From Flavipsychrobacter sp. (GTDB lineage Bacteria; Bacteroidota; Bacteroidia; Chitinophagales; Chitinophagaceae): a stretch of 64,000 bases of DNA. The notes under the pieces were generated by a model. It saw only the letters and a list, made by a program, of their open reading frames with translations, was not told where the DNA came from and made no database searches. Within the stretch, counting starts at the first letter, position 1. Each line of letters starts with the position of its first letter. Both the position numbers and the translations under genes were made by a program. The DNA lies in contig JAJNBJ010000002.1 in assembly GCA_021155965.1 (NCBI GenBank), forward strand, positions 260,289 through 324,288, read 5' to 3'. Shown piece by piece: positions 423-58,461 of the stretch.

Positions 423-956
423 TTACTGAACATACTTTTTCAGGTCGTTCTCGCCCTCTTCAGCGGTCATGTACTTGCCCAGTATCTTGCCATCGGGGCC
501 AACGAGGAAGGCCTGGGGGATGTATTGTATACCGTAGGTATTGGCGGGTACGCACTGGCCGGTGTTCCAGTCCACGAGGTCGCTCATGTGGTAAGGCCAG
601 GAAAGGCCATCAGTCTTTATGGCATCTACCCATTTACTCTTGTCCTTATCCATAGATACGCTTACTACGGTGAAGCCGCTTTTAGCGCCCTTGAACTTCT
701 TTTTTGAATACTCGTTATACATACGCACCAGGCCGGGGTTTGAGCGGCGGCACGGACCACACCATGATGCCCAGAAATCGACCAGCACATACCGACCCTG
801 GTTAATTTGTGAAAGGCGGATCTGTTTGCCTTCAGGGTTGTTGAAAGCGAGATCCGGGGCCTTTTGACCAAGTTTTATTTTAGTGTTCTCGTATTGCGCG
901 CTTGCGGAGCAGATAACGGCCAGAGACAGGGCCAGAGTTGCAAATATCTTGTTCAT
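423..956 (-). CDS. TlpA-family thiol:disulfide oxidoreductase (thioredoxin fold), secreted
   Basis: Signal peptide MNKIFATLALSLAVICSASAQ from ATG at 956; WASWCGPC active-site motif; AhpC/TSA-TlpA-like length. Confidence 0.85.
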   Translation of the reverse strand: MNKIFATLALSLAVICSASAQYENTKIKLGQKAPDLAFNNPEGKQIRLSQINQGRYVLVDFWASWCGPCRRSNPGLVRMYNEYSKKKFKGAKSGFTVVSVSMDKDKSKWVDAIKTDGLSWPYHMSDLVDWNTGQCVPANTYGIQYIPQAFLVGPDGKILGKYMTAEEGENDLKKYVQ

Positions 957-1231
957 ATATAATTCAGATGGACTGTAAATGTAAAGCAAAAATCGGACTA
1001 GGTTTTATAGGATACAGATATTTAAGGATTTTTTATAGATTATACCGATCCAATAATAAAAAATCACTATTGTCTGCGCCCGATCGCATATGGAATAACG
1101 GTCTCACATATTGTTCCGGCATACACTATAAAAATAAAATACTTATTTATACATTTACGCATAGTATTATTTGCATTTTAGCATTTACTACCATATAATA
1201 CAGCATTTTATAACACTCAAATCTTTTTATC

Positions 1232-2164
1232 ATGAAACACATTTTTTACGCACTCGTATTTTTTTCCTGTCCTGCATTGCTGCATGCTCAATCCACTATT
1301 ACACTTCGCCGGAGTTTTGTAGACAGCTTTAAAAACCGGCTGACAATTGATGCTGATTATGATGTATGGTTCTCTCATAAAAAACCAAACAAGCCTGAAA
1401 ATGACGGTGATATACATGTATCTGGATATGACCGTAAAATAGGTATGCCTTCTGTTGCTGAAATGATGAATGCTGTAGAGGAACAGGATGCCATGAAAAT
1501 GTTGATACGCCATGAAGGGAAAGGCAAGATCAACAATCCTAAAATAAGTGTTACGGGCGTATGGCGTTTATGGCCTGAGCATATGGGTGGCAACGGCAAC
1601 ACTTTTGCACAGGGGATGAAACTTACGAAAGAGGAGATCACAAAGGGCACTACAAACCCCGACCATGTGTTCGAGATCCACCCCCTGACACGCGTAGGTG
1701 ATTTTGACGTAAAGAGAACATTCCACGAGATATCCGGTTACAGCCCATACTATGCATGGTATGTGCTGGAGAAAGTAGGCAATCATACATGCGAGATCTC
1801 CTCTACCTCGAAAAAAATTTCGATAGCCACCAAGCAGATCGGGTACAACTATATAGATGCCTGGATACGTATAGATGACATAACAGACGTAAAGGATGGC
1901 GCTTTTGCAACATGCACTATACTGGACCACGACTTTGCCCGCGGCCGCAGTGTATCTGTACACAAAATTGCAGACAATGTACGCGTTGGTTTCGTGAAAG
2001 GTACGCAGCCATGGGAAGAAGCAGTGCAGGAAGGCAGGGGCTGGTTCCTGCATATTCTGGGCACATCCCGGATAAACCTTGCCGCAGTAGCAGACGCAGC
2101 AGCTAACGGCACTGCTGACTTACCACTACCTATGGAGATAATTGCAGTGGGACTTATAGACTGA
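1232..2164 (+). CDS. Hypothetical secreted protein
   Basis: 310-aa ORF with N-terminal signal peptide (MKHIFYALVFFSCPALLHAQ); no family recognised. Confidence 0.6.
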   Translation: MKHIFYALVFFSCPALLHAQSTITLRRSFVDSFKNRLTIDADYDVWFSHKKPNKPENDGDIHVSGYDRKIGMPSVAEMMNAVEEQDAMKMLIRHEGKGKINNPKISVTGVWRLWPEHMGGNGNTFAQGMKLTKEEITKGTTNPDHVFEIHPLTRVGDFDVKRTFHEISGYSPYYAWYVLEKVGNHTCEISSTSKKISIATKQIGYNYIDAWIRIDDITDVKDGAFATCTILDHDFARGRSVSVHKIADNVRVGFVKGTQPWEEAVQEGRGWFLHILGTSRINLAAVADAAANGTADLPLPMEIIAVGLID

Positions 2165-2215
2165 TCGTGGCATGGAAAATTCCTTTATTTTCGTGAAGGA
2201 ACCAACTACAACAAT

Positions 2216-2644
2216 ATGGCGGAGAAAAAATCGAAACTGGCAGAAATAAAAACCAAGCCCACTGCGGCAAGCGTGGAAGATTACATCAATAGCGTTGATG
2301 GTGAGCAAAAGCGCAAAGACAGCTTCGTGCTGCTGGAAATGATGAAAAAGGCAACAGGGGAAGAACCGGTATTATGGAGTAGCTCTATAATAGGTTTTGG
2401 CAATAAAAGATACAAAAGCCCTGCAACAGGCAGGGAGGTGGACTGGTTCCGAATAGGGTTTGCACCACGCAAAGCTAACTTGTCGCTGTACCTGACTGTA
2501 GCAATAGGGCAATATGATAAAGCCCTTGAAAAACTAGGTAAACACAAAACAGGCGGGGGCTGCCTTTACATCAATAAGCTTGCAGATGTGGACATGAAAG
2601 TACTGAAAGGTATGATTGATGCGGCTGCAAAGAAGAACTCATAA
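2216..2644 (+). CDS. DUF1801 (YdhG-like) domain protein
   Basis: 142 aa; SVEDYINSV...KRKDSFVLLEMMKK...GFGNKRYKS...LSLYL pattern typical of the YdhG/DUF1801 family. Confidence 0.7.
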   Translation: MAEKKSKLAEIKTKPTAASVEDYINSVDGEQKRKDSFVLLEMMKKATGEEPVLWSSSIIGFGNKRYKSPATGREVDWFRIGFAPRKANLSLYLTVAIGQYDKALEKLGKHKTGGGCLYINKLADVDMKVLKGMIDAAAKKNS

Positions 2645-2647
2645 GGC

Positions 2648-3205
2648 TCAGACCCTTAAAGCCCCGCGGAAACCCCGGGCTGCATAATACGATTCTGCGC
2701 CGTTGTGATACAGGAACACTGTTTCGTAACGGCGATCGCAGAATACAGCGCCTCCTAGCTTACGGATAGCTGCCGGGGTTTGCACCCAGCTCGAAGTTTT
2801 AGTATCGAATTTTCCCAACTGCTGCAGCTCACGGTATTGTTCTTCCGTAAGTATATCGATACCCATTTCTTCTGCCATATTAATGGCGCTGTCTTTGGGT
2901 TTGTGCTCTTTCCTTGCCTCCAGCGCTTCGTGGTCGTAACAAATACTTCTGCGGCCTTTGGGACTCTCTTCAGAGCAATCATAAAAAATATACTCCCCTG
3001 TCTTTTTATCATACCCAACCACATCGGGTTCGCCCCCGGTTTGCTCCATTTCATTCAGCGACCATAGTTTTTCCGTATTGGCTTCAAGACGTGTCTGCAC
3101 CTTAGCCCAATCAATGCCTTTGTGGCGGTTCGCGTTTTTTTCGAAACGCTTTTTTAGCATACCCAATAATTCGTCGCGCTGTTTGGGCGGTAGTTGCTTT
3201 TTCAT
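2648..3205 (-). CDS. DUF4256 domain protein
   Basis: 185 aa; LKKRFEKNANRHKGIDWAKVQTRLEAN..KLWSLNEMEQTGGEPDVVGYD resembles the DUF4256 family. Confidence 0.6.
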   Translation of the reverse strand: MKKQLPPKQRDELLGMLKKRFEKNANRHKGIDWAKVQTRLEANTEKLWSLNEMEQTGGEPDVVGYDKKTGEYIFYDCSEESPKGRRSICYDHEALEARKEHKPKDSAINMAEEMGIDILTEEQYRELQQLGKFDTKTSSWVQTPAAIRKLGGAVFCDRRYETVFLYHNGAESYYAARGFRGALRV

Positions 3206-3281
3206 ACAGTGTTTTTCTACTTCATTTTGAAATAGCCCCCGCCATGTTTGATGGCAGGGGCTATTTGTATCTTAGCTAAGA

Positions 3282-3824
3282 TCAATTAGCATTTGCCTGG
3301 GCCATCATTGCCACCTCCTGCTCGTAGGTGGGGCCGGCAACACTTGGCTGCTCTGCACCTATAACACGGTAGTAGGATGTAAGCTGGCCGGTATGGTAGA
3401 TCATATCATTGTGCATCATCCAGCCAATCTCGCAGAGGGGCATTTCCATTATTTGCATCGGGCCCCAGAATATTGGTGTCATCTGTGTGGCCCAGGTATT
3501 GTCATCCAATTTTTCCAATACGCTGATGAGTTTTGCGGTATTGTCTTCTACTGCTTTAGCTGCCTCAGCAGTGCTTTTATAGGTATTCGGCCCATTGATG
3601 TCAAATTTGCCTTCGTTCACCAGGTCCACCTTGCCGGCAGTAGCGCCCTGTGCCACTTCTATGGCATGAGGTGCGATATGGTTCACCAGTTCCCACGGTG
3701 AGCGGAAACTTGGGTGGTGCGTGAATGCCAGCTTCTGGGGATCGTTGGGCAGGGCCAGGATAGCTTTTGAAAGCGACGTGGCCCAGTTCTTCCACGATTT
3801 GATAAAAAATTCTTTGTTAGTCAT
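3282..3824 (-). CDS. DinB-like four-helix-bundle family protein
   Basis: 180 aa, His-containing helical pattern (HH..F.SPWELVNHIAPH.IE ... MIYHTGQL); family assignment tentative. Confidence 0.5.
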   Translation of the reverse strand: MTNKEFFIKSWKNWATSLSKAILALPNDPQKLAFTHHPSFRSPWELVNHIAPHAIEVAQGATAGKVDLVNEGKFDINGPNTYKSTAEAAKAVEDNTAKLISVLEKLDDNTWATQMTPIFWGPMQIMEMPLCEIGWMMHNDMIYHTGQLTSYYRVIGAEQPSVAGPTYEQEVAMMAQANAN

Positions 3825-3950
3825 AATTTTTATTTTTTGAAGTTAGAGATGCGTTTAACAATATAAAATTAACTGTTTTGCCAGTCTTTTCACTATTCCT
3901 TAAATTCCTGGCTCTTTGATCGCCCGTTAACCTATTGATCAATGGTTTAT

Positions 3951-4550
3951 CTAATCATCTAGTCCTTTACCCGCAAGTATCTGCGGTATGTATTGCTCTA
4001 CCCTTGCCTCACGCGTCTTTGATTGTTTGGCTTGTGAAAAATGAAACAAATATGCCCTTTGCCTGCCGGGTGTTAGCGCTTTAAAAGCTGTCCTCAGTTT
4101 AGCGCTCTTATCCAGCTTTAGCTGAAACTCCTCGGGTATATTGTATTCTTCAGTTTTCTTAAGGGGTACTTTCAGCCCTGCTTTTTCCACTTCTATAGCT
4201 TCGTACACATAGGCCTTTATAGTTTGTTTTAACTTCACAATCTCTTTTACATTTGTGAAACGCAACTGGCGGGGCACCTGCACATTTTCTGTCTGCTGAA
4301 TGAGGATACCATCGGGATCACTGAGCAATGCACCTTTGAAGAACAACAACGCACAGTATTCCTTGAACCCATGTATGAGCACTACATTCTTCTTCCCGGA
4401 TGTATAGCAGGGGCAACCCCACTTCAGTTCTTCCATCAGGCCGCCTGCCTGTCCGGCAGGCAGGCAATCAAGAATGAGTTTTCTTAGTTGCTCATACTCC
4501 TTCTGCCACTTGGTGTCTTTATTAAAAAAGAAATCAACTTTAGGGTTCAT
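3951..4550 (-). CDS. YdeI/OmpD-associated family protein (DUF1801 + YdeI C-terminal)
   Basis: 199 aa; MNPKVDFFFNK..KWQKEYEQLRKLILDC N-terminus and C-terminal LTPGRQRAYLFHFSQAKQSKTREARVE motif typical of YdeI. Confidence 0.7.
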   Translation of the reverse strand: MNPKVDFFFNKDTKWQKEYEQLRKLILDCLPAGQAGGLMEELKWGCPCYTSGKKNVVLIHGFKEYCALLFFKGALLSDPDGILIQQTENVQVPRQLRFTNVKEIVKLKQTIKAYVYEAIEVEKAGLKVPLKKTEEYNIPEEFQLKLDKSAKLRTAFKALTPGRQRAYLFHFSQAKQSKTREARVEQYIPQILAGKGLDD

Positions 4551-4559
4551 AACGCTAAT

Positions 4560-4961
4560 TTACTGGTTAACGGATGTTTTTCTGCCCGGCGGTCTTAAAT
4601 ACCACGATATTACGGTGAGCGCCAGCAAGAGCACAGCGGGAAAATTCTCACCTGCAGGATCGCCGACAGCTATATGTGAAAAGATAGCACCCGTAAGCAG
4701 AAAGAAAAAACCTGCATACGCCCATTCCTTTAACAAAGGAAATTTTGGAATAAGCAATGCTATAACCCCAAGTATTTTCCAAACACCAATTATTGTAAGA
4801 AAGTAGACGGGATAGCCCAGGTGCGTAATACCATATTCACCCGGTGGTGATAAGACACCTTCCAGTTTTACTTTTAATAACTGCTGTATACCGGTTGCCA
4901 GCATGCCTGCTGAAAGCCAGATGGTGGCTATCCAATAAATGATCTTGTTTCTCTTCGACAT
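4560..4961 (-). CDS. DoxX-like integral membrane protein
   Basis: 133 aa, four predicted TM helices, position between SRPBCC and YdeI genes as in many ArsR-headed clusters. Confidence 0.6.
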   Translation of the reverse strand: MSKRNKIIYWIATIWLSAGMLATGIQQLLKVKLEGVLSPPGEYGITHLGYPVYFLTIIGVWKILGVIALLIPKFPLLKEWAYAGFFFLLTGAIFSHIAVGDPAGENFPAVLLLALTVISWYLRPPGRKTSVNQ

Positions 4962-4967
4962 AGTGTG

Positions 4968-5432
4968 CTATTTTAATTTGCCAAGAATTTCCTGTATGCG
5001 GTTGTGCGCCATGTTTATGCCTTGCGCAAATGGCAATTGCAATACCTGGTCTCGGGTGGCAACAGACCTGTATATTACGTGCATGTTGAGCCGGCAGGTA
5101 TCTTCAGTTAGTTTTTCAAATTCCCAGAACTCGAGCTGGATACCAAAAGGTGTGCCCTCCATCTCGAATGTGCGGGTGATCTTTTGGTTGGGAACACATT
5201 CGTGTATTGTGCCGCTGAAATTATGCTTGTTGCCCTTCGGGTCGGTCGTTTCAAAATGGTAGCTGCCATGCCTTTTGCTTTCCAGCTTCAGCACTTTTGT
5301 GCCCATCCACTGCTCAACAATTTCGGGCTCCACGAACGCCCTGAACAACAATTCAAGCGGCAGGTCGAATTCCCGCGTTATCAATATTTCCTGCCTGCCA
5401 TCTTCGGCATGGATCTTTGTTTTTTGCTCCAT
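4968..5432 (-). CDS. SRPBCC (AHSA1/START-like) domain protein
   Basis: 154 aa; ITREFDLPLELLFRAFVEPEIVEQWMG pattern typical of the Aha1-like SRPBCC family; 3-nt gap from the upstream ArsR gene. Confidence 0.75.
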   Translation of the reverse strand: MEQKTKIHAEDGRQEILITREFDLPLELLFRAFVEPEIVEQWMGTKVLKLESKRHGSYHFETTDPKGNKHNFSGTIHECVPNQKITRTFEMEGTPFGIQLEFWEFEKLTEDTCRLNMHVIYRSVATRDQVLQLPFAQGINMAHNRIQEILGKLK

Positions 5433-5434
5433 AA

Positions 5435-5761
5435 CTATTGTTTTTTCGTTTTGTACTGCTGCATCACTGCTTCCAGCTTGTTGAACCTGTCATCCCACAT
5501 CTGCCGGAAGGGTTCTATAAAGTCTGCTATCTCTTTCATTTTTTTCGGATTGAGGTGGTAATAGATCTCCCTGCCGCTCTGCTCCTGTTTCAGCAACTCG
5601 CACTCGGTGAGTATCTGCAGGTGTTTGGATACCGTGGGGCGTGCAGTGTCGAAGTTTGCGGCTATGGCCCCGGCTGTCATAGATTGCGAGGCTACCAGCA
5701 TAAGGATAGCCCTTCTTGTAGGGTCTGCTATGGCCTGAAAAACATCTCGTCTCAGATTCAT
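5435..5761 (-). CDS. ArsR/SmtB-family winged-helix transcriptional regulator
   Basis: 108 aa; [17 protein letters not shown]...[28 protein letters not shown] signature. Confidence 0.85.
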
Positions 5762-5762
5762 T

Positions 5763-5805
5763 ATGTAGCTATTTGACTACAAATATAATGTAGTTATTTG
5801 GCTAC
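5763..5805. promoter_or_regulatory. Tandem operator-like repeats plus -7 box upstream of the ArsR-headed cluster
   Basis: Two 18-bp direct copies ATGTAGYTATTTGRCTAC (5763-5780, 5788-5805), each with a GTAG..CTAC inverted core. Between them the minus strand reads TATATTTG (rc of 5780-5787), matching the Bacteroidota -7 consensus TAnnTTTG. Confidence 0.5.
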
Positions 5806-5966
5806 GCAAATTTTTTTGGATTTTTTTGGGAGGAAGAGAACTAGTGCCGGGTTTGAAACTGGGGTAATAGGTAGACGCTTACTTGAGTATCCGAACGCGA
5901 AAACCAAGGAAATAAATTAACTTTGAAGCAAATACACATTTTCTTTTACAAGCACCTGACTTTCAC

Positions 5967-6794
5967 ATGGGAACCTCTGGTCCAAGAAATTATAAATATT
6001 TAACGATTAAAAGATTGTATTCATTGTCTGGTAATCGTTGTGCATTTCCTAATTGTACTCAGACATTTTTGAATTCAGATGATGAAGATAATTTCTCAAA
6101 TATTTGTCATATAGAAGATGCCAACCTAAATACTCATAAAGCTGATGGGTACAATGCACAAATGACAAATGCCGAAAGATCCGACTATAAAAACCTCATT
6201 TTACTATGCCCTAATCATCATATTGAGACAAATGACCCAGAAAAATACCCAGCAGACGTTTTACGAAAAATGAAGCGGGATCATGAAAATAAAATGGATG
6301 CATCTAATAACGGATTAACTCTTTCAAAGAACCCCTCAATTATTAGCCAAGTTGTAAATCAAATTGGGACTACACTACTAGCCGGAAATTCTGAGGCTGA
6401 TAATAGTAATGCACCCAAAACAGAAGAGAAAATTCAATTTAACAATATCGTTAGGTATAAACCATTGATCGAGGAGTATAGCGCTTTTCAAGGTAAACTT
6501 AATAGTGTTTATGAAGAAATTGAAAAACAAGGTTCTAGTAAAAAAGATTTTCTACTGCAAAATATTAGGACATTATATTTAAAGGAGAAAGGCAAGTATT
6601 TTGACATTCATGAGATTAGAGCAAACGCAGACACAATTTTTGAAAGCATCGAAAATGAAATTTGGAAGGTACTTGAAAATAGCAATAATTTCAATAAGGA
6701 CTTACCAATTGAAGCATTAAATACATCGGTTATGGTAATTATGGTTGATGCTTTTATGAGATGTAAAATACTTGAAGAACCAACTAATAAATGA
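5967..6794 (+). CDS. HNH-nuclease-domain effector protein of an ABC-3C-like three-gene system
   Basis: 275 aa; N-terminal CAFPNC...ICHIEDANLN...NLILLCPNHHIETND (HNH/ββα-Me motif), helical C-terminal half; AT-rich; stop overlaps the next start (ATGA). Confidence 0.75.
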   Translation: MGTSGPRNYKYLTIKRLYSLSGNRCAFPNCTQTFLNSDDEDNFSNICHIEDANLNTHKADGYNAQMTNAERSDYKNLILLCPNHHIETNDPEKYPADVLRKMKRDHENKMDASNNGLTLSKNPSIISQVVNQIGTTLLAGNSEADNSNAPKTEEKIQFNNIVRYKPLIEEYSAFQGKLNSVYEEIEKQGSSKKDFLLQNIRTLYLKEKGKYFDIHEIRANADTIFESIENEIWKVLENSNNFNKDLPIEALNTSVMVIMVDAFMRCKILEEPTNK

Positions 6795-7024
6795 TAGTCG
6801 ATAAAAATGTAACGCCTGATAGAGACCTGTACTTCTTAGGAAGTATTGTAATAGAAATCCTCATTGCCCGGAAAGAAACAAAAATTGACTATTTTGAGCT
6901 ATACAATAAAATGAATCATGAACACGAAATTAGTATAAACTTATTTACCTTGGTTCTAGATTGGCTTTTCATAGTTGGGGTCATCAAAAATGCGGAAAAT
7001 GGAATGATCGAAAAATGTTTTTAA
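6791..7024 (+). CDS. Small helical middle component of ABC-3C-like system
   Basis: 77 aa; ATG overlaps the upstream stop; 10-nt overlap with the downstream ATPase start; pattern DLYFLGSIVIEIL...FTLVLDWLFIVGVI resembles ABC-three-component middle components. Confidence 0.6.
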   Translation: MIVDKNVTPDRDLYFLGSIVIEILIARKETKIDYFELYNKMNHEHEISINLFTLVLDWLFIVGVIKNAENGMIEKCF

Positions 7025-8718
7025 AAACGCTGAAAATATCGAACGGAGAAATTACCATCAATGAAATCACCTTCCACAAAGGGATTAATTTGATTGTAGA
7101 TGAAACTCCAGAAAAACCCACGCCAAAATCAACCGGAAATAATGTTGGCAAGACCACTGTATTGCGGCTTGTCGATTATTGTTTTGGTGGAGATGGGAAA
7201 AATATTTTTCAAGATACTGAATTCAAAAAACAGCCCAACACGACTGTAGAAAATTTCCTAAAGAATAATAATATAATAGTAACTATCGAATTGGTATCTA
7301 ACATTGATACTTCCGATTCCGAAAGTGTGACAATTAAAAAAAATTTCTTACAAAGAAGCAAAAAGATCCAAGAAATTAATGGTGAGAATATACTCAACGA
7401 TAAGGAATTTGATAAAAAACTTAAAGAACTAATTTTTAAAACTAACGTAGACAAGCCGACGTTCCGTCAGATAATATCCAAAAACATACGAGATGAGAAG
7501 AATAAAATGAATAACATCGTTAAGGTTTTAAATTCATATGCATCAAGTGAGGTCTATGAGGCGTTGTATTTATTTTGGCTAGGTATTGAAACTGATAACC
7601 TTGAAGAGAAACAAAAATTATCCGAAAGCAAAAAAAAAGAAGAACAGTTTCAAAAAAGGCTTAAGAAAGAAGGTGAATTGTCGCTGATACTTCAACAATT
7701 CACCTTTGTCAATGGCAAATTGGAGGAACTTAATAAAAAGAAAAAATTATTTGTAGTAAATGAAAATTATGGCGAAGAGATAGAAGAATTAAATAAAGTT
7801 AAGCTACAGCAAAATGCAAGCGCAACCTTATTAGGCAGGCTTGAAGTTAGAAGAGAATTAATTTTGGAAAGCAAATCTGATTTAGAAAAAGAATACTCTA
7901 AAATAGATGCTTCGCAAATCAAATTTTTATACAGCAAAGCGGAATCATTAATACCCAATTTGCAAGTCACTTTTGAAGACACATTGAAATTTCACAACGA
8001 CTTAATAAGCGAAAAAATAACGTATATAACAAAAGAACTCCCAGAACTGGAAAAATCAATAAATAAAACCAAGAATGAATTAAAAGCCTTACAACGTCAA
8101 GAAAAACTACTAACGATATCAATAGAAAAGTCTGGTTTTACCGACGATTTAGAATTAATAATCGTAGACCTGAATAAGTTATATGAAAAAAAGGGAAGCC
8201 TTGAGGAAAAGAAGCGACTTTGGGAGACATCATTGAACAAGTTGGCTGCAATTGAAACCGACTTACAATCTATTAACGATAACATTATTTCAAAAGACAG
8301 CATCATTCAAAGTAGAATCACTCATTTTAATAATTTTTTCTCTGAATTATCCAATGAGCTTTACGGTGAATATTATTTGTTAAGTACTCAACAAACTGAA
8401 AAAGGGTATGATTTGATAGTAACAAATATTGAAGGTAACCCAAGCACCGGCAAAAAAAAGGGGCAAATTGCAGCCTTTGATTTTGCATACATTAAATTTG
8501 CCGACTCGCTTGACATAAATTGCTTACATTTTGTAATGCACGATCAATTAGAAAATATTCATGATAATCAACTTAATACGATAATAGCAGTTGCCAATAA
8601 TATTAATGGGCAATATATCGTTCCCATATTAAGAGATAAAATTCCATCTAATATCGATATTAGTGAATTCGAAGTAATATCTCTTTCTCAAGAAAAGAAG
8701 TTATTTAAAATTCCGTAG
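7015..8718 (+). CDS. ABC/SMC-like ATPase with coiled-coil insertion (DUF2326-type)
   Basis: 567 aa from ATG 7015 (MFLKTLKISNGE..); Walker A TGNNVGKTT; about 250 aa of E/K/L-rich coiled coil; C-terminal GKKKGQIAAFDFAY and LHFVMHDQ (signature and Walker-B-like). Confidence 0.8.
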   Translation: MFLKTLKISNGEITINEITFHKGINLIVDETPEKPTPKSTGNNVGKTTVLRLVDYCFGGDGKNIFQDTEFKKQPNTTVENFLKNNNIIVTIELVSNIDTSDSESVTIKKNFLQRSKKIQEINGENILNDKEFDKKLKELIFKTNVDKPTFRQIISKNIRDEKNKMNNIVKVLNSYASSEVYEALYLFWLGIETDNLEEKQKLSESKKKEEQFQKRLKKEGELSLILQQFTFVNGKLEELNKKKKLFVVNENYGEEIEELNKVKLQQNASATLLGRLEVRRELILESKSDLEKEYSKIDASQIKFLYSKAESLIPNLQVTFEDTLKFHNDLISEKITYITKELPELEKSINKTKNELKALQRQEKLLTISIEKSGFTDDLELIIVDLNKLYEKKGSLEEKKRLWETSLNKLAAIETDLQSINDNIISKDSIIQSRITHFNNFFSELSNELYGEYYLLSTQQTEKGYDLIVTNIEGNPSTGKKKGQIAAFDFAYIKFADSLDINCLHFVMHDQLENIHDNQLNTIIAVANNINGQYIVPILRDKIPSNIDISEFEVISLSQEKKLFKIP

Positions 8719-8815
8719 ATCGTCGTTTCCGCACGTGTGGGTCTTATTTTCTGACCAACAAGGTCGTGTAAGACAATCCCCCACTAGCCCAAAGCGTCAC
8801 GCTTTGTCTAGCCAA

Positions 8816-8879
8816 ATTGCAAACCCCGCCTGAGATGCCCGCCAACCTGGCGCAAAGTTTTTCCACTTCTCGCTCCCCG
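8816..8879. repeat. GC-rich non-coding module A (copy 1)
   Basis: attgcaaaccccgcc...ctggcgcaaagtttttccacttctcgctccccg aligns by hand with 58534-58593 (same orientation), roughly two-thirds identity with small gaps. Confidence 0.5.
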
Positions 8880-9003
8880 CACTCTTTCTCCGCACGCTTA
8901 CCACCGTCTCGCTTTTCTGGCATACTTTTTGCTGCATTATATAGCACGCCGCAAACGGCTGTAACCTGCTACCGGCGCGCATTTTGGCAGTTCTTTGTTT
9001 ACT

Positions 9004-9026
9004 GGAAATTATACCTTTTTTACACG
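9004..9026. repeat. Partial homologue of the islet-3 inverted repeat
   Basis: ggaattataccttttttacac-type stretch (ggaaattataccttttttacac) resembles the reverse complement of 55351-55372 (ggaaattatatttttccaccac). Confidence 0.35.
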
Positions 9027-9033
9027 CTAAACA

Positions 9034-9110
9034 GGGTATAATAATACCTTTTTAGGGTATAATAATACCTTTTGGGGGTATAAATATACCCTTTTATACC
9101 CCTTTATACC
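9034..9110. repeat. Iteron-like array of GGTATA..TATACC palindromes, 21-bp period (module B, copy 1)
   Basis: gggtataataatacc at 9034 and 9055, gggtataaatataccc at 9076 (exact 21-bp spacing), then ttatacccc/ttatacc half sites. Homology to rc of 55090-55220 continues to about 9160. Confidence 0.8.
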
Positions 9111-9320
9111 TGAAAGGAAAACACATAAGATAAGCCCACAGCGCGTTTCGCCACATACAAAAAAACATATCTACCCAAAACAGGCATTTCCCCGAAATTA
9201 TACCCTGTTTCGACTGGTATTCAAAAAAAATGTGTTGCAACAACGACAGTTCTTCGGGCCAAAAAAAGATGGATGCTGTTATCCCTGGCCGCTTCGACGA
9301 GGAACTTTTTGCAGATCTCT

Positions 9321-10850
9321 TTATTTCTTGATGAACTTCGCGGTATAAATGGCATGTTCACATGTTACCGTAATAAAGTAAACGCCGCCGGCCAATTGCG
9401 CAATATCAATTTTATCCTTACTGTGCGTGGTAAGAATGGGCCTGCCCCGTATATCAGTGATCCTGGCCTCATATGGTGTGCCTTTTTTTAGTGAAATGTT
9501 TATTTCGTTTTTTGCAGGGTTTGGATATACCAGGAGCCTTGCTGCTTCATCAACTTCCTGCACGCTGATGGAATTGGGCACGCATTGCTCTACACCGGCG
9601 ACCTCTATAGCTGAAACCACCGCGGAAAGGTTGAACAGATCCATAGTAAACGGGCCGGTCTGATAGACGTACGTTGTATCTGCAAAGCCAATTGGTGCAG
9701 GAACTGGTGAAAAATCTGTGTCTTCGCAAAACATCATCTCATTGGCATTTGTACGGATAATATGTATTGAGTCGGACCCACTGGTCTTGAAAAAATGGAA
9801 CGACCCATTATCTGCATTGATAAAGCAGGCAGCAGAGCTGGCGGGGGAAAACGTACGTATCCGGTTAAAATACCTGGCCCCTGTAACATTTAAATCAGTG
9901 TCCATACGCACTGACCTGAACCCTTCATAGCCATCCATGATGGGCGCCTGTGCGGATATAAGCAACGTATGTTCATTGCAAAAAATAGCTCTTACATCCA
10001 TTCCGCCTATTGCTGTAGTGCGAACCAAACCCAGTGCAGCATCCAAAACCCGGATCAATGTACGGCCAACACCATCGTGACCAATAATGGTGGGATTGAC
10101 CACGATAAACTGATCGTTATTTATTATTGCCATTGAACTGCCATTTATTCTCCGGCCGGAGGTTGCAGCAACAGCATTGGTTTGCAGTATACTTCCTGCA
10201 TCATTGAACTTCAGGATGACTGACCTGCCAAGCATCCCGGTATACGACACTCCGCTTAGGTATACTTCACCCGGATGCCTGTAGAGTATGGCAGAAGGAT
10301 AATCATCTGATGAGCTGTCACCAATTCTTTCTGCCCAGTCAAGTGTGCCATTAGTATCTATTTTTACGATCACAAAATCGCTGCCTGAAGCAGTATCATA
10401 AGCCTGGCCACACAGGTATAAGTTTCTGTTCCCATCCCCTGTAATGCTATACAGTTGTACCGGGACCGAATTCTTTATGTTTTTTTGCCAGACAATGTTA
10501 TTTGAGAACAGATCGTATTTTAAAATACAGCCAGTATTAGAATGAGGGCCCTGGGTGTTTGCAGTTATATATAACACACTTCCCCATTTATACACGCTAT
10601 TAAAAACGAGGTTAGTGTCTCCCAGGGAAATATTCCTGCAACTATTTACCACGCCGGTATGCTCATTAAATCTTAGAATTGAGTTGCCGGTCACCAACAG
10701 TACACCGGTATCATACCGGCCGGCATAAACAGGCGCTGAAATATTCTTAAAGCCGGGCAATGAGCAAATCTGCTTGTGATACGTTGCCTGGGCAATTGAT
10801 GCGGCAGCACCAGCTACCAGGCACAGCATTGAAACAATGAGTGTTTTCAT
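9321..10850 (-). CDS. T9SS type A sorting-domain secreted protein (beta-propeller-like N-terminal region)
   Basis: 509 aa; signal peptide; C-terminal LLVYPNPAKNEINISL...LAGGVYFITV... matches the T9SS C-terminal sorting domain pattern. Confidence 0.8.
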   Translation of the reverse strand: MKTLIVSMLCLVAGAAASIAQATYHKQICSLPGFKNISAPVYAGRYDTGVLLVTGNSILRFNEHTGVVNSCRNISLGDTNLVFNSVYKWGSVLYITANTQGPHSNTGCILKYDLFSNNIVWQKNIKNSVPVQLYSITGDGNRNLYLCGQAYDTASGSDFVIVKIDTNGTLDWAERIGDSSSDDYPSAILYRHPGEVYLSGVSYTGMLGRSVILKFNDAGSILQTNAVAATSGRRINGSSMAIINNDQFIVVNPTIIGHDGVGRTLIRVLDAALGLVRTTAIGGMDVRAIFCNEHTLLISAQAPIMDGYEGFRSVRMDTDLNVTGARYFNRIRTFSPASSAACFINADNGSFHFFKTSGSDSIHIIRTNANEMMFCEDTDFSPVPAPIGFADTTYVYQTGPFTMDLFNLSAVVSAIEVAGVEQCVPNSISVQEVDEAARLLVYPNPAKNEINISLKKGTPYEARITDIRGRPILTTHSKDKIDIAQLAGGVYFITVTCEHAIYTAKFIKK

Positions 10851-11082
10851 GTACGGGTTTTATTGGCTGAGTCCTTCGTTTTTTCAAAGCTACTTGTATT
10901 ACCTGTATTTTTTTGCGGGCTTTAATAAGTGCCACGATAAAATTCATAAGTGCCTGTAAGCTATGGACAGGTGTTATGGCAATACTGGAGGAGTGCTACT
11001 GTCAGCGGACTGCCAACTCTTGGGAGATTCCTCTCTTCACTCGTTGCACTTCGTTCCGTTCGGAATGACGCTCTTTATTGGG

Positions 11083-55089: not shown

Positions 55090-55220
55090 TAGCGGTGCGG
55101 GTGAAATGCGCTATGGGCGCTATTATGTGTTTTTATTTCCAGGTATAAACGGGTATAAAAGGGTATAATTATACCCCCAAAAGGTATATTTATACCCTGT
55201 TTAGGTATATTATACCCTGT
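55090..55220. repeat. Module B, copy 2 (inverted relative to 9030-9160), with GGTATA..TATACC palindrome array
   Basis: The reverse complement of 55142-55220 aligns with 9031-9112; the central 45 bp (ccttttgggggtata..tatacccttttataccc.tttatacctg) differ at 2 positions by hand count. Homology continues through acacataa..gc.cccatagcgc.tttc.cc. Confidence 0.8.
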
Positions 55221-55332: not shown

Positions 55333-55438
55333 AAAGTTCTTAAGGGTTTTTGTGGTGGAAAAATATAATTTCCATGACGGTACAGTTTCTGTACCGTGAC
55401 GGTACAGTTTCAGTACCGTCATGGTAAAAAGTTTTTGG
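55333..55438. repeat. Left inverted repeat (IR-L) of islet 3
   Basis: aaagttcttaagggtttttgtggtggaaaaatataatttccatgacggtacagtttctgtaccgtgacgg + extra ggtacagtttcagtaccgtcatgg copy + gtttttgg; 57 of 70 aligned positions match the rc of 58760-58829. Confidence 0.8.
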
Positions 55439-56583: not shown

Positions 56584-58461
56584 TTAATTTAAACTGTTTA
56601 CAAGCCGAATATACTCAAATAGTTTATGTAGGTTTCCCATCAGATCTTGCAACATTTTTTGATTTGGCTTTTCCATATTCTTTGGATTGTCCTCAAAATG
56701 CGATTTATTGAACTTTTGAAAAACAAATTTCGCCAAAGCATCTTTATGCAAGATAGTACCACTAGAATCGCACACTCCAGTAACATCTTGTTTAGACAAC
56801 ATACTTCCTACGCCATATTGTTCGGAAAAAACATCCCATTTAATACTCTCTGTTACACCTTTAATTTTAGAATTGCCATGCTCCGATCTTTTCGTATAAA
56901 ATTGTTTTAGTAATTCTGGATGACAATAATTCTCGAGTTCGCGTCCTTTAAGTAACCAGAAATTTGCTACATGATGAATATTGGATTCAGTGATTTCTTC
57001 CTTAATATGACTAAACCAAGTAGCAGTTTTGTTTTGGTCATTTAATTCTCCCGCTATCCGAATGCATCTTTTGATTTTTGAATTATTATCTGAATCTACC
57101 ATTACAAAAGGGTTTGGATTAACTCTTAAGACTTTTAACGCGAAATCATCTTCTATGTCTTCTATACAGTTTGTCTGTTCATCGAATGAGATATTAGCTA
57201 TTAATCCTCCTCCAGTCATCAAAATAGAGTAATGTAACCCCTCAAGTAAATTGAATTGATAGTTGGCCTTTTCAATGTAGATTGGTAAATAGGCTTTCAT
57301 CCAAGCCCTAAGCCACATGATTTCTGAAGGTCCTTCAACCCAAATAACACAGTTGCTTAATAATGCATCACCCGGAATAACTCCTAAATCATTCGCAACT
57401 GTGCGGAGAATCTTAGCATCCGTATTGTTTCTATAAAATTTATTGATATAACATGCGTCTCCTTTCTTTTGAAAATGGTATAAGCAATCATTTTCTGTAG
57501 CTGATTCCATTACTGTCGGCGAATGTGTTGATATTACATATTGTTCGCCACCGATTTCGCGTATAATTTTTATTAATTCTCGAATAAGCCCTGGTTGTAA
57601 ATGGCTCTCAATTTCGTCAATTATTACAACCTTTTTCTTATTTCTCATTATTTCCATTAATAGAATATAAATCATTGTATATCCTGTGCCAATATCATCC
57701 GACGTTAACTTCAAATGATTTTTAAAAGTAAAACTCAATAAATTCGGTTCTGCTTTTACGGCCAATGGATCTTCTAGATTTAATCGCTGTAGATACTCAC
57801 CAATTTTTCTTTTAGCAACAGTTACTATACTAGCGTGTTTAGAATCTTCTAACCAATTAAGTATGTCTTTGCCCGTCATAGCTTTATCATTACTTAAGCC
57901 AAAGCTTCGGATTGGTGCAAATATTAAAAAGCTATTTACAATTGATTTTCGGAAAAAATCAGCCACATTATTTAAGCCACTTTCAATTGCATTGATTTTA
58001 GTTAAAAAATCTTTAGTGTACGAGAATTTACCACCCTTATATTTATACGGCTCAATATTATCCAATGTGACAAAGCAATTGCACTGGACAGAGCCACCTG
58101 GATTTTTGTAAAACAAATACACTAATTGGCATTTCCTGATACTGTCTTTAATAGAATTATAAATTTGATCTAATTGTGTATAAATTGAATCGGTATGTTT
58201 CTTGGTAAACGTTAGTGTAATTTTGAATGGGATATCAATTGAAAGATTATGGAAATCGTAGTCATTCAAATCATCACCGAAACCAAATTTAATATTGTCA
58301 ATTCTGTTTACTAACGATAACGCCTTTGCAATTAAAGATTTGCCCGAATTATTTTGCCCGACTAAAAATGTGATACTGTTATTGTCAGCTAAATCAAAAA
58401 ATTGCTCTTCTTTAAACCCTCTATAATTTGCAATTGAAATTGACTCAACAACCTTTTCCAT
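56584..58461 (-). CDS. OLD-family-like ATPase-Toprim nuclease (fused ABC-type ATPase + Toprim/DUF4435-like)
   Basis: 625 aa; ISIANYRGF, Walker A GQNNSGKS, Walker B VVIIDEIESHLQP, ISTHSP; C-terminal VIWVEGPSE (Toprim Glu) and FVMVDSDNN (DxD). Confidence 0.8.
   Translation of the reverse strand: MEKVVESISIANYRGFKEEQFFDLADNNSITFLVGQNNSGKSLIAKALSLVNRIDNIKFGFGDDLNDYDFHNLSIDIPFKITLTFTKKHTDSIYTQLDQIYNSIKDSIRKCQLVYLFYKNPGGSVQCNCFVTLDNIEPYKYKGGKFSYTKDFLTKINAIESGLNNVADFFRKSIVNSFLIFAPIRSFGLSNDKAMTGKDILNWLEDSKHASIVTVAKRKIGEYLQRLNLEDPLAVKAEPNLLSFTFKNHLKLTSDDIGTGYTMIYILLMEIMRNKKKVVIIDEIESHLQPGLIRELIKIIREIGGEQYVISTHSPTVMESATENDCLYHFQKKGDACYINKFYRNNTDAKILRTVANDLGVIPGDALLSNCVIWVEGPSEIMWLRAWMKAYLPIYIEKANYQFNLLEGLHYSILMTGGGLIANISFDEQTNCIEDIEDDFALKVLRVNPNPFVMVDSDNNSKIKRCIRIAGELNDQNKTATWFSHIKEEITESNIHHVANFWLLKGRELENYCHPELLKQFYTKRSEHGNSKIKGVTESIKWDVFSEQYGVGSMLSKQDVTGVCDSSGTILHKDALAKFVFQKFNKSHFEDNPKNMEKPNQKMLQDLMGNLHKLFEYIRLVNSLN

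Follow-up and report, generated by a model that had tools for sequence, protein, structure and literature searches.

A probable HNH-type short Lamassu (ABC-3C) defence operon within a strain-variable part of a Chitinophagales chromosome

ABC-three-component (ABC-3C) systems were reportedly described by Krishnan et al. 2020. We analysed a 64,000-nucleotide stretch of the Flavipsychrobacter sp. assembly GCA_021155965.1 (contig JAJNBJ010000002.1, positions 260,289–324,288; hereafter the window, numbered from its first nucleotide), in which three genes at 5967–8718 encode an HNH-containing protein, a 77-amino-acid protein and a coiled-coil ABC ATPase. We conclude, with a probability of roughly 0.85, that these genes form a 'short' type II Lamassu (ABC-3C) operon for defence that is complete and apparently functional, was horizontally acquired and lies within a strain-variable part of a Chitinophagales chromosome.

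Reviews and structural papers treat ABC-3C as the same as type II Lamassu, or DdmABC. For the Lamassu family, phage and plasmid phenotypes, plaque assays, biochemistry, cryo-electron microscopy (cryo-EM) structures and mutants in Walker A and in the effector have been published, and DdmABC, the Lamassu of Vibrio cholerae, clears plasmids in addition to phages. In sub-families other than the one described here, an LmuA1:LmuB2:LmuC1 complex sequesters a monomeric effector's C-terminal domain (CTD) and senses ends of double-stranded DNA (dsDNA); ATP-dependent opening then frees LmuA, which forms a CTD-mediated tetramer, the active nuclease, and abortive infection follows. Given these assays and structures, the statement in an earlier prediction made from the letters of the window (the original prediction) that the class is essentially untested, with trigger, target and stoichiometry open, no longer applies at the family level, where phenotypes, structures and stoichiometry are on record; it holds only for the sub-family with an HNH-CTD10 effector, an MC6 middle component (MC) and a DUF2326 ATPase.

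Sub-families are named by Li et al. in a scheme of the type Lamassu^Cap4-CTD7-MC3. Haudiquet et al. (PNAS 2025, PMC12663957) characterised 'short Lamassu' by an LmuB of ~600 amino acids with the Walker A motif Gx4GK[S/T], the Walker B motif hhhhD[Q/S/T/E] and zero to two zinc hooks. The effector types that they list for short Lamassu are HNH, SMEK, lipase, Cap4, Mrr, Sir2 and protease, of which HNH, SMEK and lipase are specific to the short type, and one clade has lost the effector domain.

Gene content and classification of the cassette

The cassette and the elements next to it are as follows.

5967–6794, + strand: lmuA-like effector gene (gene 1), 275 amino acids, with an N-terminal Cap5/SPARHA-type HNH nuclease (residues ~13–115) and a C-terminal helical CTD10 docking/oligomerisation domain (~125–272)
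6791–7024, + strand: lmuC-like middle component gene (gene 2), 77 amino acids, MC6, with translational coupling on both sides
7015–8718, + strand: lmuB-like SMC/Rad50-type ABC ATPase gene (gene 3), 567 amino acids, DUF2326/YydD family
5918–5925, + strand: candidate Bacteroidota-type −7 promoter element TAACTTTG (pattern TAnnTTTG; putative function), 42 nt 5' of the gene-1 ATG
8728–8751, + strand: weak terminator-like hairpin (8728–8741) with a T-rich tail, 10 nt past the gene-3 stop; a pattern match from a consensus scan

The open reading frames (ORFs) are exactly those of the three co-directional, coupled genes originally proposed: as read off the sequence, genes 1 and 2 overlap in ATGA at 6791–6794, and genes 2 and 3 share 10 nt at 7015–7024. 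The start of gene 3 at ATG 7015 is supported by its homologues, all of which begin at the same methionine, and by independent gene calls.

Gene 1 encodes the presumptive effector. The motifs ICHIED (residues 46–51) and LLCPNHH (residues 79–85) are present in its N-terminal half, and the AlphaFold2 (AF2) model (predicted local distance difference test (pLDDT) 75) has two parts, a Cap5-like HNH N-terminal domain and a helical C-terminal domain, matching the HNH-plus-helical layout of the original prediction. Consistently, Pfam identified HNH_2 (2e-4) and CTD10, the C-terminal domain 10 of ABC-3C systems (1.1e-13, 52 bits against a curated cut-off of 28), and the PADLOC model PDC-M68A matched over the full length (8e-26). 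When compared with PDB sequences, the HNH half recovered an HNH endonuclease (9om4, 4e-7) and the SAVED-HNH protein Cap5 (7rwm, 8e-7); Foldseek likewise matched the N-terminal domain to Cap5 (7rwk, 8fmf and 9dih, probability 1.0). The catalytic and zinc residues C25, C30, H48, N76, C81, H84 and H85 (C-x4-C, C-x2-HH) are kept in 12/12 HNH-bearing homologues aligned, and homologues in public sources are named 'ABC-three component system protein' or 'HNH endonuclease'. The sole Foldseek match of the C-terminal domain was YydB of Bacillus subtilis (9a6c_B, probability 0.99). YydB shows no match to the HNH part of gene 1 and so carries another effector at its N terminus. We take this N-terminal domain of YydB to be of phosphoesterase type.

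The 77-amino-acid product of gene 2, whose ORF stands as originally called, matches the ABC-3C middle component MC6 of Pfam over its full length (2.6e-14, 53 bits against a cut-off of 27). Its homologues are annotated as 'ABC-three component system middle component 6', and PADLOC holds no model for the MC6 gene.

Gene 3 scored 70 bits against the Pfam family DUF2326 (2.2e-19; cut-off 28.7), and its homologues are labelled 'YydD (DUF2326 family)'. In PADLOC it matched PDC-M68B over the full length (2.5e-42) and, more weakly, LmuB over residues 1–450 (1.6e-7). All three motif features first noticed in this protein were recovered. Walker A, GNNVGKTT, occupies residues 41–48 (G41–T48) and the deviant Walker B, FVMHDQ, residues 506–511 (D510–Q511). 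In the AF2 model (pLDDT 77), a split ABC head formed by residues ~1–190 and ~450–567 is separated by an anti-parallel coiled coil of ~250 amino acids that appears as a near-continuous helix at ~196–450. Additionally, the sequence and alignments point to a signature-like motif, STGKKKGQ (S477–Q484). The protein has two cysteines only and hence no CxxC zinc hook. According to the alignments, the most conserved positions of the arm are its apex (Y306, F326-H327-N328) and G394. In the V. cholerae complex the LmuB dimer holds the docked LmuA CTD close to its head-distal end, and by analogy the conserved apex of gene 3 is a plausible site of dimerisation and docking.

Structural searches of the PDB with gene 3 placed B. 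subtilis YydD on top (9a6c_A, 8e-19, an integrative YydD–YydB model), followed by LmuB of Salmonella Lamassu (9hqx_B, 3.6e-11; 9hqu_A, 1.9e-10); matches to Smc, cohesin, Rad50 and JetC ranked at or below the LmuB chains. The title of PDB entry 9a6c describes a complex of YydB and YydD whose model is based on in-cell cross-links. Sequence searches of PDB chains, whether with the ATPase alone, a narrow profile or a broad 60-sequence profile, never returned LmuB at significance and yielded coiled-coil noise only (Wzc, designed coiled coils). The link of gene 3 to LmuB therefore comes from the PADLOC model and the fold.

All three features that define ABC-3C systems are thus found at the locus: a coiled-coil ABC ATPase, a middle component between effector and ATPase, and a family-specific CTD, which in related loci is joined to other N-terminal domains or stands alone. 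CTD10, MC6 and DUF2326 all exceed their curated Pfam cut-offs, which bears out the ABC-3C architecture with a DUF2326-type ATPase that had been proposed. The traits of short Lamassu are all present here or in sister loci, namely an ATPase of 567 amino acids, GNNVGKTT, FVMHDQ, zero zinc hooks and an HNH effector (SMEK_N in sister loci). In the scheme of Li et al., the sub-family is Lamassu^HNH-CTD10-MC6. PADLOC v2 itself calls the system PDC-M68 and not Lamassu; PDC-x entries are unpublished PADLOC candidates.

Co-conservation and genomic setting

Scanning one genome per species yielded 23 loci, 16 of which carry enough upstream DNA for gene order to be judged. The order gene 1–gene 2–gene 3 is kept in all 16, from several phyla (Bacteroidia, Cytophagales, Cloacimonadales, Spirochaetaceae, Balneolaceae, Patescibacteria and others). 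Taken with the Pfam scores, this recurrence goes well past what chance would give. Protein divergence is correlated across loci, with rho = 0.91 for gene 1 versus gene 3 and 0.64–0.66 for pairs involving gene 2. A more distant set comprised 20 loci on IMG/VR viral contigs, in which the ATPase is 25–50% identical. Here too an MC6 gene lies directly 5' of the ATPase gene (20/20, as in the 16/16 genomic loci), and CTD10 was found in 18 of the 19 in which the gene-1 position is covered. The possibility, raised in the original prediction, that the three genes are not co-conserved was therefore not borne out: the trio stays together in every genomic locus judged, and MC6 with the ATPase in every viral-contig locus. 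For the HNH-CTD10/MC6/DUF2326 branch, >1,000 cluster representatives (clustering at 50% identity) match at E ≤ 0.001.

The N-terminal domain of the effector varies among the distant viral-contig loci: it is HNH in 2 and SMEK_N (SMEK_N-CTD10) in 7, and is absent or short in the remainder (CTD10-only). Such pairing of an invariant docking domain with exchangeable effectors is what typifies ABC-3C/Lamassu. The Balneolaceae locus (L016, from CP051242) also has CTD10 without HNH. At 4862–5736 of this locus, the LmuA-like protein has just 194 amino acids and abuts a 96-amino-acid ORF with a hydrophobic, transmembrane-like segment; it may be an effector-less variant, a membrane-effector variant or a frameshifted fusion.

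The cassette differs in composition from its surroundings. Its GC content is 31.5%, compared with 43.9% for the window, 46.2% for the genes on the left and 47.5% for those on the right, and its GC content at third codon positions (GC3) is 0.24–0.35 versus 0.45–0.62 in neighbouring genes. The proposed AT-richness relative to both sides is thus upheld for the genes, whereas the description of the right-hand non-coding DNA as GC-rich is not: at 45% GC, 8719–9320 is near the genome average and appears GC-rich merely by contrast with the cassette, the GC-richer part being only 8719–9000 (52.5%).

The window belongs to a 455-kb JGI metagenome contig, and its pyrD, most similar to those of Nemorincola, Flavipsychrobacter and Taibaiella, marks the uncultured host as a Chitinophagales bacterium. 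The genes on either side are an ArsR-regulated stress-gene cluster (left) and a gene for a protein secreted by the type IX secretion system (T9SS; right); no integrase, relaxase, transposase or phage gene lies within 10 kb. In relatives with 94–95% and 81% identical pyrD the cassette is absent, and the DNA that they have in common with the window extends only up to the pyrD stop (~11,080). In one of these relatives (L056), it is not until the Redoxin/L31 block (below 905) that similarity is seen again. Because close relatives lack the cassette and the shared DNA ends at the pyrD stop, the cassette falls inside a strain-variable region of ~10 kb. This interval, ~905–11080, runs from the Redoxin/L31/TIM block to pyrD and holds the ArsR/AHSA1/DoxX/DinB/DUF1801 stress cluster, the cassette and the T9SS protein; relatives with 81–95% identical pyrD carry wholly different genes there. 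The pyrD-adjacent region is rearranged in every relative, so that no exact empty site could be reconstructed from the close relatives and no precise insertion junction can be given. A repeat search around the cassette returned only short, weak direct or inverted pairs (e.g., 15 nt at 87%), judged to be chance, and Rfam and tRNA scans (5400–9700 and the window) revealed no RNA gene and no tRNA attachment site at its borders.

When loci are compared, their DNA similarity does not extend beyond the three coding sequences (window ~5980–8717), and no flanks are shared. As similarity starts and stops at coding sequences, the inherited unit is just the three genes. Their settings elsewhere vary. In a Flavobacterium the same cassette interrupts the suf operon; at another locus it adjoins a TerB/BrxD-like ATPase/helicase cluster and HipA; and at locus L026 it lies in a region like a prophage or an integrative and conjugative element (ICE). 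Two near-identical Flavobacterium contigs (L028 and L029), both with the cassette inside the suf operon, differ by further small insertions between suf genes (a ParE/YoeB toxin plus DUF2683, and a 23S_rRNA_IVP protein), and in those contigs the suf operon seems to be a favoured site of insertion. More distant relatives of the ATPase are carried by plasmids from Clostridium botulinum, Priestia, Acinetobacter and Lacticaseibacillus, and the whole length of the ATPase is matched by a PHROG family with no assigned function. Collectively, the atypical GC and GC3, the variable contexts and the absence from close relatives identify the cassette as horizontally acquired and mobile.

The putative promoter element belongs to a pattern, TAnnTTTG, that occurs within 150 nt 5' of gene 1 in 9/13 loci, where ~1 was expected from shuffles (maximum 6). 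We take TAnnTTTG to be the Bacteroidota −7 consensus. A sigma-70 scan, which is uninformative for a Bacteroidota host, returned 18 sites against 13.6 expected.

Several other elements of the window were noted. On the left, two 25-nt-spaced inverted-repeat boxes, ATGTAGCTATTTGACTACA / ATGTAGTTATTTGGCTACG, at 5761–5815 lie directly 5' of the divergent ArsR-family gene (5435–5761, − strand), of which they are probably the operator. The boxes form the left-hand boundary of host DNA next to the cassette. On the right, 8719–9000 is a 280-bp, C-skewed non-coding segment flanked by the converging stop codons of gene 3 and of the T9SS protein. The segment gave no Rfam match and no tRNA, its RNA folding is no different from that of shuffles (z = −0.85, −1.5), and one gene caller placed a doubtful 65-amino-acid ORF in it (L025). 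A repeat element follows at 9029–9210. It consists of three tandem 21-nt units (9033–9095), AGGGTATAATAATACCTTTTT, each holding the imperfect palindrome GGTATAAT(A/T)ATACC, with an inverted partner at 9197–9210. A 123-nt inverted copy lies 46 kb away at 55100–55220 (84.6% identity, E 5e-31), and the window holds 17 occurrences of the motif where 2.5 were expected. Since this element is not common to other Lamassu loci, it does not belong to the cassette and might represent an array of operators or else a small intergenic repeat. Just past the second repeat copy, 55380–55430 contains two near-identical tandem palindromic units, GACGGTACAGTTTC(T/A)GTACCGT. Further on, the − strand at 56584–58461 encodes a 625-amino-acid OLD/GajA-like ABC ATPase (Pfam AAA_21 5e-17, AAA_15 8e-14; PADLOC GajA 4e-20, AriA 1e-19, AbiLi 1e-18), which, ~48 kb away, is a candidate defence gene distinct from the Lamassu cassette; neither of the two small ORFs next to it matched a family.

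Proposed mechanism and alternative readings

By analogy with characterised Lamassu, from which we draw the stoichiometry, the trigger, the oligomerisation-dependent activation of HNH and the abortive-infection outcome, the cassette may work as follows. Two LmuB-like ATPases, folding back on their coiled coils, would together with the MC6 LmuC clamp the CTD10 of one HNH LmuA and so keep the nuclease as an inactive monomer. The complex would then meet aberrant phage or plasmid replication DNA, such as free dsDNA ends or hairpin/palindrome structures, upon which ATP-dependent engagement of the heads would open it and release LmuA. Free LmuA is predicted to oligomerise via CTD10, pairing HNH domains into active sites for indiscriminate DNA cutting; the infected cell would be killed or arrested and the spread of the invader aborted.

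A number of observations weigh against a Lamassu defence operon, or against carrying over what is known of Lamassu. The structural alignments of gene 3 show 12–15% identity with template modelling scores (TM-scores) of 0.35–0.52, and profiles of the DUF2326 clade failed to reach DUF3732-type LmuB (9hqu_A at E = 0.46, over Walker A only). Because profiles do not bridge the two, the DUF2326 clade is a remote branch, tied to Lamassu by its fold, the PADLOC model and its partner proteins. For CTD10, Foldseek returned no match to the CTD7 of solved LmuA, and tetramerisation is therefore not simply transferable to gene 1. The 77-amino-acid MC6 is of a different family from the MC3 LmuC of V. cholerae, residues of which up to N133 contact DNA; being short and of another family, it may not conserve those DNA-end contacts. 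The cassette is chromosomal and solitary among housekeeping and stress genes, outside any defence island, and GenBank phage records contain no homologue. Our literature search found no experimental test of an HNH-type Lamassu, of a DUF2326 system or of the HNH-CTD10/MC6/DUF2326 sub-family. The sequence remoteness, the 77-amino-acid MC6, the missing zinc hook, the non-cysteine apex motif and the lack of a CTD7 fold match leave some room, on balance a minor one, for the DUF2326/YydD-type clade to work differently from the Lamassu studied so far, through another signal, another stoichiometry or another HNH oligomer, such as Cap5-like tetramers or SPARHA-like filaments.

The operon could also be the same machine in a different service, acting mainly as a plasmid or mobile genetic element exclusion module, or an addiction module, that benefits its carrier elements through inter-element competition or stabilisation and is not primarily anti-phage. 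The plasmid-borne relatives in Clostridium botulinum, Priestia, Acinetobacter and Lacticaseibacillus, those on predicted viral contigs, the prophage/ICE-like context of L026 and the removal of plasmids as well as phages by V. cholerae DdmABC would all fit such a role. Here, however, the cassette sits on the chromosome, and genes for integrase, relaxase or phage functions are absent within 10 kb; the role would in any case be compatible with phage defence and use an identical molecular mechanism; we regard it as improbable. That the cassette is instead an inactive relic, acquired but now non-functional or unexpressed, might be suspected from its solitary position and its AT-richness relative to the host, yet all three ORFs are full length with their overlaps preserved, every catalytic and nucleotide-binding residue is unaltered and falls in an invariant column of the alignments, and a promoter-type motif lies 5' of gene 1. 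A relic is accordingly very improbable.

Two further readings would place the genes outside Lamassu altogether. Septu (PtuA/PtuB) likewise couples an ABC-type ATPase with an HNH nuclease, and the middle ORF would then be incidental to this or some other two-component system. Yet PADLOC gave no PtuA or PtuB match for genes 1–3, the ATPase has a coiled coil of ~250 amino acids and a DUF2326 C-terminal head, the nuclease carries CTD10, and the curated MC6 family is kept in 36/36 loci examined in the order effector–MC–ATPase. On the profile results and the three-gene composition, including CTD10 and MC6, we rejected this reading, which we consider extremely improbable. The ATPase might alternatively be a housekeeping SMC/RecN/RecF/SbcC-type protein of repair or chromosome maintenance with the HNH protein as its repair nuclease, as its SMC/Rad50-like fold and the proposed descent of Lamassu from SbcCD could suggest. 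The placement in a housekeeping SMC/RecN/RecF clade against which the original prediction had asked to be checked was not found: nothing in NCBIfam exceeded its cut-off, and no such housekeeping model matched. The partners, moreover, are ABC-3C-specific, and the cassette is missing from relatives with 94–95% identical pyrD, varies in position and has a foreign base composition. A housekeeping SMC was thus rejected on distribution and profile data, and we assign it a negligible chance. A short type II Lamassu operon remains the reading that we adopt.

Comparison with known systems

The finding is an ordinary instance of an architecture already catalogued as CTD10/MC6/DUF2326 in Pfam, as PDC-M68 in PADLOC and as 'HNH, short Lamassu'. 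The locus adds one more environmental case, from Chitinophagales, to a catalogued defence sub-family and changes no concept. Its branch, HNH-CTD10/MC6/DUF2326, is abundant across many phyla, plasmids and prophage-like elements, and is the most compact form of Lamassu, with an LmuC of 77 amino acids and an effector of 275. Its distance from the solved systems leaves room for differences in details such as the trigger, the stoichiometry and how the HNH effector oligomerises. From one well-chosen member it could be learned whether 'sequester, release, oligomerise' also applies with HNH effectors and the YydD-type ATPase, a group that includes the long-unexplained yydBCD genes of B. subtilis.

Among described systems, the cassette agrees with short type II Lamassu (V. 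cholerae DdmABC, Salmonella LmuACB and Escherichia coli Lamassu-Lipase) in the order effector, middle component, SMC-like ATPase, in the variable N-terminal enzyme domain joined to a helical CTD, and in an LmuB of ~600 amino acids with a canonical Walker A, a deviant D-Q Walker B, a short coiled coil and a fold that matches solved LmuB. Unlike solved Lamassu, it has an ATPase of the DUF2326/YydD type instead of the DUF3732 type, an HNH effector instead of Cap4 or lipase, CTD10 instead of CTD7/8/9 and a 77-amino-acid MC6 instead of MC3, and it lacks a zinc hook. In comparison with PDC-M68 of PADLOC, genes 1 and 3 match PDC-M68A and PDC-M68B, whereas PDC-M68 is modelled as two genes and leaves MC6 without a model. 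The YydB–YydC–YydD proteins of B. subtilis provide the best structural match both for the ATPase (9a6c_A) and for the CTD of the effector (9a6c_B), at an identity of ~15%; our search of the literature found neither a YydD–YydB paper nor a yyd defence phenotype. The HNH domain of gene 1 belongs, by sequence (9om4, 7rwm) and by fold, to the same clade as those of CBASS Cap5 and SPARHA, which are active as tetramers and as filaments, respectively, and the SPARHA paper lists ABC-3C effectors in that clade. What sets the three apart is the sensor module: Cap5 uses SAVED, which binds cyclic nucleotides, and SPARHA an Argonaute, whereas in the present system, by analogy with Lamassu, CTD10 docked on an SMC-like ATPase would take this part.

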